This document shows positions 1,435 through 30,285 of a stretch of DNA of 32,000 nt, in pieces. Each line of letters starts with the position of its first letter. Positions within the stretch are counted from its first letter, which is position 1. Location: contig NZ_LT671858.1 in assembly GCF_900083515.1 (NCBI RefSeq), forward strand, positions 1,710,001-1,742,000. Direction: 5' to 3'. The DNA is from Cuniculiplasma divulgatum. Lineage in GTDB: Archaea; Thermoplasmatota; Thermoplasmata; Thermoplasmatales; Thermoplasmataceae. Position numbers and translations under genes: made by a program. The notes under the pieces are model-generated. The model saw only the letters and a program-made list of their open reading frames with translations. It had not been told where the DNA came from and searched no databases.

Positions 1435-1506
1435 GGGCCGGTAGATCAGGGGTAGATCGCTTGCTTCGCAAGCAAGAGGCCTCGGGTTCAAATCCCGACC
1501 GGTCCA
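1435..1506 (+). tRNA. tRNA-Ala, anticodon CGC
   Basis: The cloverleaf folds by hand. Acceptor GGGCCGG/CCGGTCC with a G3:U70 pair (the alanine identity element), D arm GATC-AGGGGTA-GATC, anticodon arm CTTGC-TTCGCAA-GCAAG (anticodon CGC at 1467-1469), variable loop AGGCC, T arm TCGGG-TTCAAAT-CCCGA, discriminator A. No CCA is encoded. Confidence 0.95.
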
Positions 1507-1555: not shown

Positions 1556-2848
1556 ATGACCATGCAGCCGAAGTACCAGGAACTGCTTCTTGATGATGAT
1601 GTGAGAAGGTGGTACGAGAACCTCAGGGCAAAGTCGGTTCTTACTGCGACAGTTGCATTGAGGAATCTGGGCCACTATTGTGAGCTTACCCACACAAATC
1701 CAAAGGGCATATTGAATAAAGCAAGCGCCAGCGAGAAGGATTTCAGGTACGAATTCACGGATTTTGTCAGGAGGATGGAAAAGGAAGGCAAGGCAGGATC
1801 ATACATAGCGAGATTCAAGAAGGTCATTATCTCTTGGCTGAAGTTTAACGGTATTGGTTTGCAGTTAACCGTTAACATATCCGGGGAAAACGAAACACCG
1901 ACAATCGTTAACGAGAGAGTTCCAAGCAAGGAAGAACTGGGTAGAATACTCAGGAAAGCCACATCAAGAGGGAGAGTTGCCATAGCCATTATAGCGTTTT
2001 CAGGCCTCAGACCGGAATCCCTGGGAGATTACGAAGGCACAGACGGATTGAAACTTGGCGACATCAAAGAATTACGTATATCTGATGAAATACAGTTCGA
2101 AAAGACTCCTGCAATGATTGTGGTGAAGAACAAGCTGAGCAAGGCAAGGCATCAGTACTTCAGCTTCATCGGAGAAGAAGGCGCAACCTACATAAAGGAA
2201 TATCTTGAGGAGAGAAGGAAGCTGGGCGAGGAGCTGACCTACGAGTCTCCATTGTTGCAGTTCGATGTCAGAGGAGTTAAGAAGAACGCATTCCTGAGAA
2301 CCACTCTTGTTACCAGGGATATAAGGGAAGCAATAGAAAACTCAGGCCTGAAGATGCGTCCATATGTCCTGAGAGCGTATTTCTCAACGGCATTGGATAT
2401 TGCAGAGGCAAAGGGCCTGATATCCCATCCATGGAGACAGTTCATCATGGGCCACAAGGGAGACATAGAAGCCCGATACTCTACGAACAAACGGCTACTA
2501 CCTCCTGATGTAATTGAGGAGATGAGGGAGGCATACAGGAAGAGCACGAAATTCCTTGAGACCAGATACAGCGAGCTTGAGGAGGACAAGGCCCGGTTGT
2601 ATCTGCAGCAGCAACTCCTATCAGCAGTTGGCTACAAACCGGAGGAGATTGACAAAATGGATCTCACCGACATAAGCAGCGACGACTTCCAGAAGCTACT
2701 CAGGGACAAGGTCGCGGGAGCCATGGCCAGCAACGGCTCGAAACAGAGGCTTGTTCCAATGAATGAGATAGAGAAGCTCCTGAGCGAAGGATACGAGTTC
2801 CAGGCAGTTCTGCCCAACGGAAAGGCTATAATGAAAATGCCGTTTTAG
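1556..2848 (+). CDS. int: Tyrosine recombinase / integrase of the integrated element
   Basis: 430-aa ORF directly downstream of the tRNA target. The catalytic-type motifs appear in order: FSGLRPESL (Arg I), LRAYFSTAL, FIMGHKGDIEARY (His...Tyr nucleophile region). Confidence 0.85.
   Translation: MTMQPKYQELLLDDDVRRWYENLRAKSVLTATVALRNLGHYCELTHTNPKGILNKASASEKDFRYEFTDFVRRMEKEGKAGSYIARFKKVIISWLKFNGIGLQLTVNISGENETPTIVNERVPSKEELGRILRKATSRGRVAIAIIAFSGLRPESLGDYEGTDGLKLGDIKELRISDEIQFEKTPAMIVVKNKLSKARHQYFSFIGEEGATYIKEYLEERRKLGEELTYESPLLQFDVRGVKKNAFLRTTLVTRDIREAIENSGLKMRPYVLRAYFSTALDIAEAKGLISHPWRQFIMGHKGDIEARYSTNKRLLPPDVIEEMREAYRKSTKFLETRYSELEEDKARLYLQQQLLSAVGYKPEEIDKMDLTDISSDDFQKLLRDKVAGAMASNGSKQRLVPMNEIEKLLSEGYEFQAVLPNGKAIMKMPF
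2811..2848 (+). repeat. Copy 1 of a 38-bp direct repeat (the authentic 3' end of int)
   Basis: tgcccaacggaaaggctataatgaaaatgccgttttag. A 31-bp stretch is identical to 4804-4834 and the repeat is 36/38 overall. Confidence 0.9.
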
Positions 2849-3013
2849 TTGGGCTATCTAGGGGTTTCGATAAATGAAGTTAGATAGAGTTATAGGCTCT
2901 TGTTCGCATTATGCGTGAAGGTAATAAATATAATTCGATTAGCTAAACTGATAAAAGCAGAAGCCTGCGATCATTTCTATGCTCTTATGTCGCCCTAGTT
3001 AATAGGGTCAACA

Positions 3014-3022
3014 TTTTTATAA
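3014..3022 (+). promoter_or_regulatory. TATA box candidate for the cysteine-rich protein cassette
   Basis: TTTTTATAA is centred 25 nt upstream of the ATG at 3043. Confidence 0.45.
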
Positions 3023-3042
3023 CATGATTTTATTCATAAATT

Positions 3043-3684
3043 ATGAGCTGCAGTAATTGTTTTGACGCAAAGGGGAGGAAGATTACCAAAATAAGCGTGC
3101 CACACACAGAGACCTATAAGGTGGGAGCAACAAACGTAACCGAAGGAGTTACGGTTGTGCAATTTAAAGAGGGCCCTGGAGCGATCCTTAACTGGAAGTA
3201 CATTATCGAAGGAGAAACTTCATCAAATGCCTCGATTACATACGTAATACAGCATAGCGGAAAAACAATAACCAATAAATTCAGGACAAAGTACATTGAC
3301 ACAATCAACGGTAAGAAAATTGTTCATGTTGAGGGAAGCGGACTGAACTCGAACGGCAGGGTTACGACTGCTAACCAAGATGTCGCTCTCTCGAACATAA
3401 AATCGGACCCAAATACCATCGAGTGTCTTATCTGCCATGCTCTTGGAACGGTGCTCTGTACACTTCTCGCAGATGGAGTTTCTGAGGACTTGGCTTGCGA
3501 GGAGGCATCGGGTATTGTATGCCTGGAATTCATAGAAGACCCTATTGTTTATGTCGTCTGTTTTGGAGTCGTGGCATCTATTTGCGATGTTGTCCTTCAA
3601 ACGGTAGTAGATATTGGCGTTCACGTAGCGTGTGAACTTGGTGCAGATTATATATGCGAGAAAGCAATCGGTTGTTCTCTATGA
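3043..3684 (+). CDS. Cysteine-rich protein with a beta-rich N-terminal half and a ~90-aa hydrophobic C-terminal domain carrying 10 Cys (halocin C8-like framework). Candidate archaeocin precursor.
   Basis: 213-aa ORF. The C-terminus is DPNTIECLICHALGTVLCTLLADG...VCLEF...VCFGVVASICD...VACELGADYICEKAIGCSL. It is clearly paralogous to 29180-29800. I saw no N-terminal Sec or Tat signal. Confidence 0.75.
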   Translation: MSCSNCFDAKGRKITKISVPHTETYKVGATNVTEGVTVVQFKEGPGAILNWKYIIEGETSSNASITYVIQHSGKTITNKFRTKYIDTINGKKIVHVEGSGLNSNGRVTTANQDVALSNIKSDPNTIECLICHALGTVLCTLLADGVSEDLACEEASGIVCLEFIEDPIVYVVCFGVVASICDVVLQTVVDIGVHVACELGADYICEKAIGCSL

Positions 3685-3727
3685 TGTATTTAAATAGTTA
3701 CACCCATATATATAGCGAGGTAGTTCT

Positions 3728-4255
3728 ATGAGATACAGACTTGCGTTAATCGTTGTTGGGATCACAATAATATCTGTTGATACTGTAGTCTCTCTCAGAT
3801 ATCCAAAAATTCTAATTTACAGTTATTGGGGGTCCTTCCTTGGATTCTTCGTCCCCTTTGGGATTGGCCTGTCAGTTCTCCTGTATGGCATATTTAAGGC
3901 ACGTGATTATGGAATAAATCCGATTATTGGGACAATCGGATCAGGAGGCTTTACAAGAGTGATGAGACAAAATAGGATTCAGGGCACAAGAATGTGGAAA
4001 TCCGACCACGACATTCTTTCTGATCTGCCTGGGGCGGTGAAATCACCGGATGGTAAGACTGTAGAATACACTAACATGTTCATAAGAAAACCATATGGGA
4101 CAACGAAATATTCTAGAATGCTTAACGAAGCGGCGAATAAATACCTTAGCGGTGAATTAGATGAGGAGGGCTTTTACAACTACGTCGGAAAACATGGAGC
4201 GAAAGAGGAGCAAATGCTCGAATTCATTAAGAAATTCAAAAATGACTATAAATGA
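3728..4255 (+). CDS. Membrane-anchored protein of unknown function (two N-terminal TM helices plus a soluble domain)
   Basis: 175-aa ORF, 44 nt after the upstream gene on the same strand. The N-terminus is hydrophobic (LALIVVGITIISV..., FLGFFVPFGIGLSVLLYGI). Cassette 2 has no counterpart. Confidence 0.6.
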   Translation: MRYRLALIVVGITIISVDTVVSLRYPKILIYSYWGSFLGFFVPFGIGLSVLLYGIFKARDYGINPIIGTIGSGGFTRVMRQNRIQGTRMWKSDHDILSDLPGAVKSPDGKTVEYTNMFIRKPYGTTKYSRMLNEAANKYLSGELDEEGFYNYVGKHGAKEEQMLEFIKKFKNDYK

Positions 4256-4264
4256 GATGATAAA

Positions 4265-4519
4265 ATGGTTAAATTTCATCCGATAAACAAAGTAATGACC
4301 GTGGGTACCTTTCTGTTCTTCGCTTCTCTTATTGTTTTAGCTATAGGGACAATTTTTCATTCTAACGGTCCAATATTGGCAGATACTTTTCTGTACGGAG
4401 GATTAGCTTTCCTAATTTCTATCATTCTCCTGACAATAGGTGTACTCACCGGTGCACGAAGTGGTAAACTCAGACAGAGGACAGACGAGATATTTGGCAA
4501 GAAACAGAAAAGAGAATAA
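4265..4519 (+). CDS. Small two-TM membrane protein with a basic C-terminal tail. Candidate immunity or export partner.
   Basis: 84 aa. Paralogous to 29821-30072: MVKFHP vs VVKYHKP at the N-terminus, two TM segments, then SGKLRQRTDEIFGKKQKRE vs SGSRQERMRELFENSKRK. Confidence 0.65.
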   Translation: MVKFHPINKVMTVGTFLFFASLIVLAIGTIFHSNGPILADTFLYGGLAFLISIILLTIGVLTGARSGKLRQRTDEIFGKKQKRE

Positions 4520-4556
4520 GGTGTTAAAGTGAGCATTCAAGGAGCTGTAAATCCAA

Positions 4557-4781
4557 TTGCTGAGTAAATACCCACATCATTTGCTCTTTGTCATTTTAGT
4601 CTCTATCGTGACACTTATAGTCAATGTCCTTGCATTCTACACAAGGAATGTCTCTAACTATCTCTATCTTTTCGACATAGCTTATGTAATTGGAAACAGT
4701 GCCCATTTTGTTGCATTGTCCATCTCATCAAATGGCATTAGTGTTGAGGATGAAAGAGACCAAGATAGCCTTGGTTTCTGA
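4557..4781 (+). CDS. Small two-TM membrane protein (TTG start)
   Basis: 74 aa with GGAG 13 nt upstream. The N-terminus MLSKYPHH matches MVSKHVHRY of 30076-30285, and the two proteins share position in the cassette and TM architecture. Confidence 0.55.
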   Translation: MLSKYPHHLLFVILVSIVTLIVNVLAFYTRNVSNYLYLFDIAYVIGNSAHFVALSISSNGISVEDERDQDSLGF

Positions 4782-4803
4782 AACTCCTGACTAAATTGCA
4801 GGA

Positions 4804-4841
4804 TGCCCAACGGAAAGGCTATAATGAAAATGCCTTTCTAG
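4804..4841 (+). repeat. Copy 2 of the 38-bp direct repeat (relic 3' end of an integrase gene)
   Basis: tgcccaacggaaaggctataatgaaaatgcctttctag still encodes PNGKAIMKMPF-stop. The two differences from copy 1 are synonymous (ccg/cct, ttt/ttc). Confidence 0.9.
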
Positions 4842-4845
4842 AATT

Positions 4846-5475
4846 GTGCTTCTTTCTACGCCCATAGATTACCGCCTTCCCGAAGATAAGAATGCGGAGA
4901 TGGTGCTGAGGACCATTCAGGACAGAGAAAGAAGTTTTGAGAGGACTTACACCACAGACTTATACATGATGTTTTCAGACAAAATGGAGGATGAGATTAC
5001 TTCCACCAACGAGCTCAAGCACGAGTGGATCGATAAAGCCATTAAAAGGCTCAAAAAGAGAAACTTCATCGACAGAATTCAGGATGAAAAAGATAGGCGA
5101 AGGGTAGAGCTCAGAACCAGGTCCGAGGAAATATACACCCATATGATCAAAAGGGACCCCATGCTCTTCTGGAAGCTGATAGAGAAGGGTCACTTTTATT
5201 TCATAGTCAGGTTCAGGAATTCCGGTGGCAATGTGATATGCCCGGAATGCGGCCGCCGCAGGCCTCTTATTGCCGATATAACCGGCAACAGGGCCGCAAG
5301 ATACGTGGTGAATGACGATCTGCACATAGATGTAACAATCAGGCACCTTGCCATCAGATTCGACTGCGGATGCGGATATTCCTACTCGGATGAGGTTGAT
5401 ATGTTCGATCCTCTGACCGTGGAGGACTTTTCCAGACTTCATGATGCCGCAGACAACCGTCGTAATCCAGTGTAA
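4846..5475 (+). CDS. Putative DNA-binding protein: winged-helix-like middle region plus a C-terminal Cys cluster (zinc-ribbon-like). The start codon is uncertain.
   Basis: 209-aa ORF with a GTG start in the track; internal ATGs are possible alternatives. Motifs are KAIKRLKKRNFIDRIQDEKDRRRVEL and CPECG...CGCG. Confidence 0.55.
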   Translation: MLLSTPIDYRLPEDKNAEMVLRTIQDRERSFERTYTTDLYMMFSDKMEDEITSTNELKHEWIDKAIKRLKKRNFIDRIQDEKDRRRVELRTRSEEIYTHMIKRDPMLFWKLIEKGHFYFIVRFRNSGGNVICPECGRRRPLIADITGNRAARYVVNDDLHIDVTIRHLAIRFDCGCGYSYSDEVDMFDPLTVEDFSRLHDAADNRRNPV

Positions 5476-10347: not shown

Positions 10348-10953
10348 ATGACACTCGCTTTTGCCTACGTAAGAGCCAGCACGCAGGAAGAGGTCAGGCA
10401 GGGCTCAAACGAGAGACAGAAGGAGGTAATCAGACAGTGCGCCGAGCCCAGAGGCTACGAGCTTGAATTCTTTGAAGACAAGGCAAAATCCGGGAAGAAT
10501 ACGCAGAGGCCCGAATTCGAAAGGATGCTGAAATCCCTTGACCTGAGGCCTAAAGTGGTCATAGTATCAAAGATCGACAGGTTTGCCCGATCCTTATCCG
10601 ACCTGTTAAGAACGCTTGAATACCTTGACCAGAAGGGCGTAGGATTCGTCAGCGTCAATGACCCGGGCATAGATACCACCACCCCAAATGGAAGACTCCT
10701 GCTGCAAATTCTGGGCGCCTTTGCTGAATTTGAAAGGAACATAATCAATTCCCGCACCAAAGCTGGCAGAGAGCAGGCAATGAACAAGGGAGTTAAATTT
10801 GGAAGGCCTGCACTGAAAACCAGGAATGGGAACTTCATAGACAGGAGAAAGGTTCTAGAGCTGAAAGGAAAAGGTCTGTCCGCCAGAGCTATAGCGAAGT
10901 CCATGGAATGCTCAGTAACCCCGATACTGAGCATTCTTAAGGAAACCCCATAG
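10348..10953 (+). CDS. Serine recombinase (resolvase/invertase family)
   Basis: AFAYVRASTQEE carries the catalytic Ser context. It is followed by VIVSKIDRFARS and FAEFERNIINSRTKAG, and a C-terminal HTH (GKGLSARAIAKSM). 201 aa. Confidence 0.9.
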   Translation: MTLAFAYVRASTQEEVRQGSNERQKEVIRQCAEPRGYELEFFEDKAKSGKNTQRPEFERMLKSLDLRPKVVIVSKIDRFARSLSDLLRTLEYLDQKGVGFVSVNDPGIDTTTPNGRLLLQILGAFAEFERNIINSRTKAGREQAMNKGVKFGRPALKTRNGNFIDRRKVLELKGKGLSARAIAKSMECSVTPILSILKETP

Positions 10954-11214: not shown

Positions 11215-12258
11215 ATGTCAATGAAAGACCCCATATCGTTTGTGGAGGCAAAGGTGAAGGAACGAGCCAAGGAGACGAGCAACATAAAGAATGCAATCAT
11301 CTTCGACATGGACTTCAAGCCACCAAGAATACTCATAAGAAGCGAATTGAACAAGGTAACAAACGACCTTGCTGATTACGTTAACCTGAATCTTCCAAGG
11401 CACATAATCATCTATGGTTCCAAGGGTTCAGGAAAAACCCTTAGCGCGCTAACAATAGCATCCGCCTTCAGGGAGAGCAAATCCATGCCTTTCTTCTATG
11501 TGAATGCCAGAGAGAATCCCACTTCAACAAAGATCTATAGAAAGATGACAAGAATAGACAGCCGGGGTCACGACATAGACGAGGTGAAGAGCAGGCTCGA
11601 TTCCATGCTCTCTGGGAAATCCATCGTCATTCTTGACGAAGTCGATTTCCTCCAGGATTATGACGTACTGTATCACTTATCCAGACACACAAAGGCCAAT
11701 CTTATCCTATTAACGCAGAAGGTCTACTGGTACAAGGACATGAACGACGAAAGTGTCAAGAGTTCGATGCAACCTGACCACATAGTGTTCCATGAATACA
11801 ACGCTGACGAGATTCGCGAAATATTGAAAATGAGGGCAGAGGAAGGCCTGAACAAGTTTGACAGGGAAGCTTTGGGACTGCTTTCGGCAATGCTCGTCAG
11901 GGAATACAGGAGCGATGCAAGAATAGGGATAAAAGCTCTTGAGATACTGGGCAGGATCAACAAATGGAACGATGACGCAGTTAAATCAGCATTAAGGCAG
12001 GCTTACGTTGAAGTGGAAGGCGAAACCCTCAGGAACCTTGGCGGCAGAGATTTATTGATTCTCGCCTCGTTGATCAAGAATCAGGACACCAACAAGGCAT
12101 ATTCAGAAGTAACAAATATCAACAATTTCCTTGTAAAGGGAATGAGCAAGTCAACATTCTTCCAGAGTGTCAACTACCTGCAGAACCTTGGCCTTGTCAC
12201 GCTGATAAAGAAGAAGATAGGCAGATATTATACTATGGAGTCGCAAATATTATTATAG
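11215..12258 (+). CDS. Orc1/Cdc6-family replication initiator
   Basis: Walker A IIYGSKGSGKT, Walker B IVILDEVDFL, an AAA+ lid and a C-terminal winged-helix-like region. 347 aa. A TATA-like AATAAAATA sits at 11189-11197. Confidence 0.85.
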   Translation: MSMKDPISFVEAKVKERAKETSNIKNAIIFDMDFKPPRILIRSELNKVTNDLADYVNLNLPRHIIIYGSKGSGKTLSALTIASAFRESKSMPFFYVNARENPTSTKIYRKMTRIDSRGHDIDEVKSRLDSMLSGKSIVILDEVDFLQDYDVLYHLSRHTKANLILLTQKVYWYKDMNDESVKSSMQPDHIVFHEYNADEIREILKMRAEEGLNKFDREALGLLSAMLVREYRSDARIGIKALEILGRINKWNDDAVKSALRQAYVEVEGETLRNLGGRDLLILASLIKNQDTNKAYSEVTNINNFLVKGMSKSTFFQSVNYLQNLGLVTLIKKKIGRYYTMESQILL

Positions 12259-29179: not shown

Positions 29180-29800
29180 ATGGCAAAGAGAATAAATAGT
29201 ATAAAGGTTGTCCATTTTGATGAAACTACTGAAAATGGTGTCAGAACACAGCAAGCATCTGTACTTATTGAAATTGAAGGCGAAAGACCTAAATTAATTC
29301 AGGGAACGCAAGTATTGAAAGGAGATGTAAACGGTAAACACACTATCAGCTATACTATATTCAATGGAAGAAATATTGGGAAAGCAACCTACTCCATAAA
29401 TACAATGGAAAAGAATGAAAATGATTCAAAACTAAAAATTGTGGGCATTAGTGAGGGAAAAGTTTGTTGCGGGAATAGTAAACCGATAGACACAACATTA
29501 GTGGTACCTAATAAAACATACTCAAGCAATGATCCATCTATTCAATGCGACATTTGTCAGGAATTAGTTAAGGAAATATGCGAGGAATTGGCAGACGGCA
29601 TACCTTCGGATGAGATATGTGCGGACGTATGTGTTGCGGGAGCAGGAGATATTTGCTTATTATTTGTTGAAACCTTAATCGGTTACCTTATCTGTCTATC
29701 AATTTGCGCCTCTCTCTGTGCACTGGCAATAGAGGAAATAACAGATTACGGTTGTAGCGTGGGAGCCGAGTACATATGCCAAAAGGTAGGTGTATGCTAG
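29180..29800 (+). CDS. Cysteine-rich protein, paralogue of 3043-3684 (halocin C8-like C-terminal domain, 12 Cys)
   Basis: 206 aa. The C-terminus DPSIQCDICQELVKEICEELADG...ICLLFVE...GYLICLSICASLCALAIEEITDYGCSVGAEYICQKVGVC aligns with cassette 1 through DP..I.C.IC, LADG, and GA.YIC.K..GC. Confidence 0.75.
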   Translation: MAKRINSIKVVHFDETTENGVRTQQASVLIEIEGERPKLIQGTQVLKGDVNGKHTISYTIFNGRNIGKATYSINTMEKNENDSKLKIVGISEGKVCCGNSKPIDTTLVVPNKTYSSNDPSIQCDICQELVKEICEELADGIPSDEICADVCVAGAGDICLLFVETLIGYLICLSICASLCALAIEEITDYGCSVGAEYICQKVGVC

Positions 29801-29820
29801 ATGGTTTACATTAACGTGGG

Positions 29821-30072
29821 ATGATTATAGTGGTAAAATATCATAAACCAGTTAGTTATTTGAGTCTTATCGCAGGTTTCCTCTTCATAGCGTTTTTATT
29901 AATCGGAGCAATTGCGATAATAGTCATACATTCACATGTTCTGGCCTTTATTGATCTGGGTTTGTTACCGGTAATCGTAATTGTGGGAACAGTAGGATAT
30001 ATAAAAAGCCTAAAAAGCGGTTCAAGACAAGAGAGAATGAGAGAACTCTTTGAAAATTCAAAGAGGAAGTGA
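29821..30072 (+). CDS. Small two-TM membrane protein with a basic tail, paralogue of 4265-4519
   Basis: 83 aa with the same position, length and topology as its paralogue, and a conserved SG..RQ.R..E.F tail. Confidence 0.65.
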   Translation: MIIVVKYHKPVSYLSLIAGFLFIAFLLIGAIAIIVIHSHVLAFIDLGLLPVIVIVGTVGYIKSLKSGSRQERMRELFENSKRK

Positions 30073-30075
30073 AAA

Positions 30076-30285
30076 ATGGTTTCAAAACACGTTCACAGGT
30101 ATATCATAGGAGGGGTGGCCATATTTTTCATAGTTTATGTGCTAGTAGCAAATGCCTATCTTAGTTTCAGGGACTTTGCATTGTATGCAGCGTTGCCTTC
30201 ATTAGTGATAATGATTGCTCTTGCCTTTTTTTACCGCTATCTTGAAAACAGTATCAAATTTGAGCGGAGGACAGGAACTCAATAA
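30076..30285 (+). CDS. Small two-TM membrane protein, paralogue of 4557-4781
   Basis: 69 aa starting 3 nt after the upstream stop. The N-terminus is MVSKHVHRY vs MLSKYPHH. Confidence 0.6.
   Translation: MVSKHVHRYIIGGVAIFFIVYVLVANAYLSFRDFALYAALPSLVIMIALAFFYRYLENSIKFERRTGTQ

Follow-up and report, generated by a model that had tools for sequence, protein, structure and literature searches.

Why do the last codons of an integrase gene recur about 2 kb downstream of that gene, with a cassette of small genes lying between the two copies? This arrangement occurs in Cuniculiplasma divulgatum S5, in an element of ~19.2 kb integrated at a tRNA-Ala(CGC) gene. We analysed a stretch of 32,000 nucleotides (nt) holding this element (NZ_LT671858.1, positions 1,710,001 to 1,742,000; hereafter the window, whose numbering applies to all coordinates given without a locus name). 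A previous inspection of the same letters, the sequence-only reading, had taken the arrangement as a signature of modular exchange. Our comparison with related elements points in the same direction. Cassettes are present or absent at the end of the integrase gene int with exact junctions, and the answer we lean towards is homologous recombination in which the int tail would act as a portable homology arm and as a module boundary.

The integrase tail and its downstream copy

The int gene (1556-2848, + strand) is an intact open reading frame (ORF) of 430 amino acids (aa) encoding a tyrosine-recombinase integrase. Its last 12 codons with the stop codon (2811-2848) recur on the same strand at 4804-4841 as a direct repeat, TGCCCAACGGAAAGGCTATAATGAAAATGCC(G/T)TT(T/C)TAG, with 36 of the 38 positions identical and the first 31 nt exact. 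When up to three mismatches were allowed, the 31-mer had exactly two matches in the window, against 0.00 expected from 100 shuffles. Both copies read PNGKAIMKMPF followed by a stop codon, and their two differences (ccg/cct and ttt/ttc) are synonymous in the int frame. Four ORFs were located between the copies, at 3043-3684, 3728-4255, 4265-4519 and 4557-4781 (all + strand); we call them cys, for the cysteine-rich protein, o175, o84 and o74. In all these respects the sequence-only reading had described the locus correctly.

The order of int, cassette, 38-mer and following gene is the same in an independent complete genome (L092; CP133595.1, ~95% nt identity) and in the contigs L093 and L097, and because of this shared arrangement the layout in S5 is no assembly artefact. 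With zero matches expected by chance and the architecture repeated in that genome and in several metagenome contigs, we give chance similarity or misassembly practically no weight. The repeat is not a generic one either, a point on which the earlier interpretation depended: in ~1.1 Mb of related loci, the 38-mer is confined to int 3' ends and to sites after o74. Its 26-mer core has no match in IMG/VR.

Copy 2, which we call the int-tail stub, is non-coding here apart from a 12-codon mini-ORF. The base (A) preceding it makes an ATG, so that an in-frame mini-ORF (MPNGKAIMKMPF and a stop codon) spans 4803-4841 and ends 4 nt before the GTG of the next gene. An equivalent ATG in L011 lies one codon farther upstream. 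The mini-ORF is probably a coincidence; as an alternative, it could couple the next gene to termination and reinitiation of translation.

Cassette-less relatives and the module boundary

The locus was compared with 67 genome loci that have int homologs and with about 45 more that were found via cassette proteins (all numbered with the prefix L). A metagenome scan with the cysteine-rich protein gave 2 loci only, and exact-protein look-ups gave more. The element is one of a large Thermoplasmatales family in which int is followed by a variable regulator slot, o60-o124-o135, a VirB4/HerA-like ATPase and ParA. In the window, the slot gene (4846-5475, + strand) has its GTG start 4 nt past the stub and encodes 209 aa with a weakly MarR-like winged helix-turn-helix (wHTH; Pfam MarR, E=1e-3, below the cut-off) and a C-terminal Zn-ribbon. 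Among the slot genes of relatives, it has homologs in types b, d, e and f. Diverged wHTH/Zn-ribbon homologs make up types a, b, d, e and f together with an inverted 207-aa form, and type c is distinct. Integrases 93-94% identical to that of the window precede four of these types (f in L001, d in L002 and L003, e in L004 and L005, a in L039). Because integrases this similar precede different slot types, the int stop codon is a recombination boundary in this family.

The sequence-only reading had proposed a search for relatives in which int is followed directly by the gene at 4846. Seven such elements were found (L014, L015, L019, L024, L039, L044 and L056), each with int, a spacer of exactly 4 nt, as between stub and slot gene in the window, and then a homolog of the slot gene. 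We aligned four pairs of empty and filled loci from the int stop codon or the stub end onward. The downstream homology is 97.8% starting at nt 1 for empty L006 and filled L035, 85% starting at nt 1 for L015 and L112, 76% starting at nt 7 for L004 and L011, and 69% starting at nt 5 for L039 and the window. In every pair the homology begins at the int stop codon or stub end or a few bases past it, and these joins support the proposed modular exchange at the int tail. The cassette is present or absent between the same flanking genes with exact junctions, the pattern of moron-type insertions.

In L082 (3811-4434, − strand) and L100 (5315-5938, − strand), a 207-aa slot gene homologous to types b, d, e and f lies on the opposite strand and converges on the cassette. 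The predicted regulator module is inverted in some lineages of this family, which also encodes a serine resolvase/invertase.

Distribution, length and conservation of the stub

In every stub-bearing locus the stub follows o74. A stub of ~36-38 nt ends at least three types of cysteine-rich cassette, and it lies ahead of at least five different downstream contexts. The order cys-o175-o84-o74-stub is found in the window, L092, L011, L082/L007 and L009/L035/L070, and cys2-o84-o74-stub in L100-L103 and L112-L114, where L112 has the whole series int-cys2-o84-o74-stub, 4 nt and slot a. Stacked cassettes occur in L038: cysX-134-75-o74-stub is followed by a second cassette (cys-o175-o84) and then by slot a. 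The element of L111 has an unrelated 399-aa integrase and carries o84-o74-stub, with the stub 36/36 identical to the int tail of the window. L090/L091 have a cassette without any 38-mer.

The stub is 32-38 nt long in most loci, 23 nt in L035, 51 nt in L007 and L082, and ~300 nt in L009, L070, L071 and L104. In the last four, an older stub remnant of 16-23 nt is joined to codon ~329 of a diverged int, of which codons ~329-430 (~65% aa identity) are present. These long fragments come from a diverged int; the second copies are therefore genuinely int-derived, and new joins to int genes have happened repeatedly. The sequence-only reading had considered copy 2 the stub of a different, diverged integrase allele. 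The integrase origin is upheld by the ~300-nt stubs of L009, L070 and L104, but the stub is specific neither to this element nor to this cassette. It is an old right end that several cassette types have in common and that has stayed similar to int tails instead of decaying.

Among seven stub lineages, the mean pairwise identity is 0.84 for the stubs, 0.66 for the adjacent o74 nucleotides and 0.46 for the third codon positions of o74. In L011 and L007, rare variants (AAG; AAAAGC with CCATTCTAA) occur both in the stub and in the resident int tail. L038 and L087 are 93% identical in o74 and only 84% in the stub, which suggests that the stub was replaced in one of them. Rare variants common to stub and resident tail, and the mismatch between L038 and L087, fit repeated recombination or conversion between stub and int tail.

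Two 100% identical tandem cassette copies (period 1992 nt), each bounded by an identical 51-nt int tail, were observed in L007 (3408-7448), of which L082 is the single-copy version. The tandem is either a product of unequal crossover, a sign of a circular form or an assembly artefact of a contig with ~5x coverage in a metagenome-assembled genome (MAG). Since the copies are 100% identical and the coverage is low, this duplication was left out of the evidence.

Proposed mechanism and alternatives

We hypothesize, with slightly more confidence than doubt, that homologous recombination moves these cassettes and that the int tail serves it as both homology arm and module boundary. The int stop codon marks that boundary, with conserved coding sequence upstream and alternative, barely alignable slot alleles downstream. 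Some elements hold one or more optional cassettes, each composed of a halocin C8-like protein and small membrane proteins, between int and the slot gene. The body or tail of int would be the left arm; the stub, pairing with the int tail of a recipient, would be the right arm. Partners may be related elements that are co-resident or tandemly integrated. Such pairing could insert, cleanly delete or stack cassettes and bring them to new slot alleles, each time with an exact junction to the gene that follows. Recurrent recombination and gene conversion against the protein-constrained int tails would keep the non-coding stub from decay. Variable stub length is what homology-based or illegitimate joins would give, and not what is expected of a fixed site. 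Beside the observed anatomy, empty and filled states, junctions, stub conservation and shared variants, we infer this mechanism and a cassette that would be mobile at present.

Several observations weigh against this mechanism. No excised circle, deletion variant or insertion event was seen; of the eight contigs with the exact slot protein, each has the cassette or breaks off at the repeat. Best matches shift along int in a sliding-window comparison, so int genes are mosaic, but no 3' segment was found to track the cassette carriers. A homology arm of 38 nt is short. Selection for some function could maintain the high conservation of the stub instead. In lineages whose sequences upstream of the stub are unrelated, its left end falls within ~2 nt of TGCC, which a site-specific process would also give. 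The only tandem duplication, that of L007, may be an artefact for the reasons given above.

The sequence-only reading had offered two routes to the repeat, a recombination-delimited unit and tandem integration of two related elements with partial deletion. The first fits the data better; a single event of the second kind may explain the long stubs, but not the conserved short stub that many loci share. If two related elements had stood in tandem at tRNA-Ala and a deletion had taken away the distal part of the first and left only the last 38 nt of the second int as a neutral scar, the repeat would be a one-off relic, and we consider this unlikely. In favour of a relic are the true ~300-nt fragments of another element's int after o74 in L009, L070, L071 and L104 and the ending of the window stub, CCTTTCTAG, which the int alleles of L010, L012, L017 and L040 have and the resident int does not. 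However, the o74-stub junction is common to the window, L011, L092 and other cassette types in which o74 is only 46-70% identical, and the stub is therefore older than this element. A neutral scar of such age is expected to approach the third-position identity of o74 (0.46), not to stand at 0.84, and the stub of L111 belongs to an element with an unrelated integrase. We hold it a minor possibility that the int tail carries a promoter with parts resembling a B recognition element and a TATA box (GGAAAGGCTATAATG), or another expression signal for the abutting gene, with insertions tolerated only if a tail copy stands before the slot gene. Since the start of the slot gene varies between 1 nt before and ~23 nt after the int stop codon, any separate promoter must lie inside int. 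The TATAAT of copy 2 (4820-4825) is at −26 to −21 from the GTG at 4846, and the TATA-like boxes of cys and int are at −29 to −21 and −28 to −22. In 546 upstream regions, A/T-only hexamers peak starting at −30 to −26 from the start codon (19% versus ~5.5% background). The L035 stub has a decayed 5' half and a perfect 3' part of 23 nt that includes TATAAT, and L022, L038 and L087, which have no stub before the slot gene, have an independent A/T box in the spacer between o84 and slot gene. Yet other loci have a conserved stub ahead of a slot gene turned the other way (L082, L100), of a cys leader with a putative promoter of its own (L038) or, at a distance of 75 nt, of a gene for an unrelated membrane protein (L111). 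The site scored unremarkably with a positional weight matrix (40th percentile of the upstream regions). This Thermoplasmatales promoter matrix, built from the 546 regions, was too diffuse to score the 38-mer, and the position profile of A/T hexamers alone was informative. The last 12 int codons have a synonymous diversity of 0.31, modestly under the gene mean of 0.42, and because the depletion is modest we do not claim strong DNA-level constraint on the int tail.

A site-specific process would fit the constant left boundary of the stub. The 38-mer would then be an attachment (att)-like site at which the integrase or the serine resolvase of the element (10348-10953) inserts and excises cassettes as in integrons, which seems very improbable to us. 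In its favour are the stacked cassettes of L038 with a stub between them, the two recombinases encoded by the element and an inverted repeat, AACGG-N19-CCGTT, inside copy 1. The stub is, on the other hand, variable in length, the 38-mer is unlike the att core of the element, the cassette has its own promoter-like box, and the cassette of L090/L091 lacks the 38-mer. The 5-bp inverted repeat is not conserved among int alleles, in which CCATT and CCTTT are common, and it is broken in copy 2. We likewise see little chance for the broader proposal that the int tail is the dedicated recombination site of an integron-like archaeal platform, where a recombinase of the element would capture, stack and excise archaeocin/immunity cassettes and o74-stub would be a cassette-borne half-site. 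The palindrome AACGG-N14-22-CCGTT was looked at separately: it occurs 3 times in the window against 0.08 expected, and we rejected it as a feature of the 38-mer, since the CCGTT half is conserved neither in the alleles nor in copy 2. Insertion of a transposon or insertion sequence (IS) with target-site duplication was also rejected. No cassette ORF has a transposase domain, no inverted repeats flank the cassette, and the repeat ranges from 23 to ~300 nt in the relatives.

Cassette genes and halocin C8-like cargo

The cassette begins with a leader (2849-3042, + strand), in which an alignment of 8 leaders revealed a conserved TATGC-N5-6-GGTAATA island and a TATA-like box (TTTTTATAA, 3014-3022) at −29 to −21 from the ATG of cys. 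The Cys protein has 213 aa and a C-terminal halocin C8-like domain with 10 Cys, a candidate match to TIGR04449. The alignment covers profile positions 1-69 of 69 with 19.6 bits, below the cut-off of 24 bits; for the paralog at 29180-29800 the score is 52.9 bits, and 7 of 7 aligned family members match at E<=0.01. No TIGR04449 match was obtained for the Cys-rich protein of 310 aa in L038, and a PDB sequence search with the profile of the halocin-like family found nothing. The product of o175 is membrane-anchored and is a candidate immunity or export component, kept where relatives have lost the halocin domain. The o84 gene encodes a small membrane protein with two transmembrane segments, which has a homolog in a second cassette, and o74 encodes another small membrane protein, whose gene is the one before the stub in relatives when a stub is present. 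For o175, o84 and o74, neither Pfam nor PHROGs indicated a function.

Halocin C8 is an archaeocin released from a precursor whose N-terminal part gives immunity (bioRxiv 10.64898/2026.07.27.741052). The ProC8 locus of Natrinema (Sun et al. 2005 as summarised in bioRxiv 10.64898/2026.07.27.741052) and the cassette have in common a C-terminal hydrophobic domain of ~70-85 aa with 10 Cys, in the cassette protein a sub-threshold match to TIGR04449, after a longer N-terminal part in one precursor-like protein. They differ in the N-terminus, where no RR motif or hydrophobic signal for twin-arginine (Tat) or general secretory (Sec) export was evident by eye in the cassette protein (MSCSNCFDAKGRK...), and in the neighbours, which are small membrane proteins here and HalR with ATP-binding cassette (ABC) transporters there. 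The present genes are further set apart by their place in a mobile element of an acidophilic, wall-less archaeon. The cassette is plausibly an archaeocin/immunity module.

In relatives, the halocin C8-like gene was repeatedly found cut down or lost, with o175 and o84 downstream intact. Only residues 1-130 are left in L011 (3379-3768), 1-116 in L069 (5001-5348) and 1-37 in L022 (11448-11558). L035 has an internal deletion (1154-1340), the gene is absent from L036 (~12020-12257), and it is cut by an IS in L090 (5863-6420). By analogy, such apparent loss of the toxin domain with o175/o84 kept resembles the retention of orphan immunity genes at bacteriocin loci. In L079 (4523-7380), L081 and L107-L110, an intact or degraded int and the cassette stand beside chromosomal genes and the rest of the element is gone. 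These remnant islands keep the predicted archaeocin/immunity genes.

A cassette of the same type had been noted elsewhere in the window, and this holds. The second cassette (29180-30285, + strand) lies between IS transposase genes, lacks an int-tail stub and has three genes, encoding a halocin C8-like protein of 206 aa (29180-29800; 26% identical to the first cassette protein, E=3e-19), an 83-aa homolog of o84 (E=2e-8) and a 69-aa membrane ORF. It is located ~8.5 kb past the right attachment site (attR) copy, and a near-identical cluster directly follows the o84 of the first cassette type in the metagenome contig L068 (2807-3981). This suggests that the position of the second cluster in S5 may be due to IS-mediated relocation.

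Comparison with known systems

Tailed phages and prophages are mosaic: morons and module-boundary (linker) sequences are part of their model of modular evolution. The cassettes resemble morons as optional units between genes that are adjacent in relatives, with a box that may be a promoter of their own, with exact junctions and with exchange at short conserved border sequences. They differ in their border, a duplicated fragment of integrase coding sequence which travels with the cassette, and in their host, an archaeal plasmid-like element that integrates and matches no phage, plasmid or IMG/VR record. Tandem genomic islands at tRNA genes with integrase remnants also share features with this family, namely integration at a tRNA gene, a tyrosine integrase and foreign int fragments downstream, as in the ~300-nt stubs of L009 and L070. 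The short stub is unlike such remnants, since it is conserved, common to several cassette types and always accompanied by o74, and is no random decaying pseudogene.

Archaeal integrases of the Sulfolobus spindle-shaped virus (SSV) type are split into int(N) and int(C) on integration. The likeness to that system is a fragment of int that is detached from its gene and placed at the edge of inserted DNA. We nevertheless rejected a partitioned SSV-type integrase: the 430-aa ORF of int is complete, the tRNA 3' end that serves as att site lies upstream of int, and the 38-mer is not tRNA-like or tRNA-derived and covers 12 codons only. Integron arrays are similar in having small accessory cassettes stacked beside an integrase gene with a recurring short sequence between them (L038). 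They are dissimilar in their attC sites, as we found no attC-like conserved palindrome, a variable repeat length and cassettes with promoter-like boxes. An integron-like array is disfavoured for want of a conserved structured site of defined extent, the lone inverted repeat being 5 bp long and not conserved.

Overall we see the well-known mosaicism of mobile elements, in a variant where moron-like cargo stands at a module boundary, and current views of such mosaicism are not overturned. Unusual is the boundary sequence itself, a conserved piece of the integrase gene travelling with the cassette. The literature consulted on Cuniculiplasma and on genomic islands of acidophiles (PMC5155288, PMC12302457) does not describe the repeat or the cassettes. 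Integrative elements are abundant in acid-mine Thermoplasmatales, and accessory "weapon" modules, here halocin C8-like proteins with small membrane proteins, may move among them in this way. Recombination at the stub, if confirmed, would offer archaea a simple, recombinase-independent way to stack and transfer cassettes. The sequence between an int tail and its downstream copy offers a handle for finding more cargo. The toxin domain has been lost repeatedly from cassettes that keep their membrane genes, which gives a testable hint that wall-less acidophiles have archaeocin immunity.

Other features of the element

The integration target is the tRNA-Ala(CGC) gene at 1435-1506 (+ strand), detected with ARAGORN and as Rfam RF00005 (68.6 bits). 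It is the one tRNA in the window, and Rfam gave nothing else. The 3' end of the tRNA gene is the core of the left attachment site (attL, 1488-1508, + strand), a 21-nt direct repeat with the attR core (20701-20721, + strand; 20/21 identical). This direct repeat bounds the element, as is typical of tRNA-integrating elements; attR is its right end, and IS-type transposase genes start just beyond. Besides int, the cassette and the wHTH/Zn-ribbon gene, the element encodes three small ORFs, a VirB4/HerA-like ATPase, ParA, the serine resolvase, an Orc1/Cdc6-like AAA protein and a methylase and Res-helicase pair.

More than 2000 homologs of the integrase were found; nearly all belong to acidophilic Thermoplasmatales, and many have PF00589. 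The protein of the window itself is under the Pfam reporting threshold; it matches the phrog_1 integrase (E=6e-5) and, weakly, NCBIfam XerA/XerD. These matches and the PF00589 homologs identify the gene as a tyrosine recombinase. Int gave no tblastn match in PLSDB plasmids or INPHARED phages, and its family is absent from these collections and from IMG/VR.

Two further stretches were observed. About 560 nt between the Res-helicase gene and a 490-aa ORF (17834-18400) look non-coding and have no Rfam match; the only ORFs there are rich in Arg, Pro and Leu, the local GC content is higher, and cttcgc-type motifs recur. Within int, codons ~93-108 (1832-1880) are the most conserved stretch at synonymous sites among 22 alleles, with a diversity of 0.08 against the mean of 0.42. 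This stretch holds the palindrome TTAACGGT-N11-ACCGTTAA and may have a signal embedded in its DNA or RNA, for instance an internal promoter, an antisense element or a binding site.

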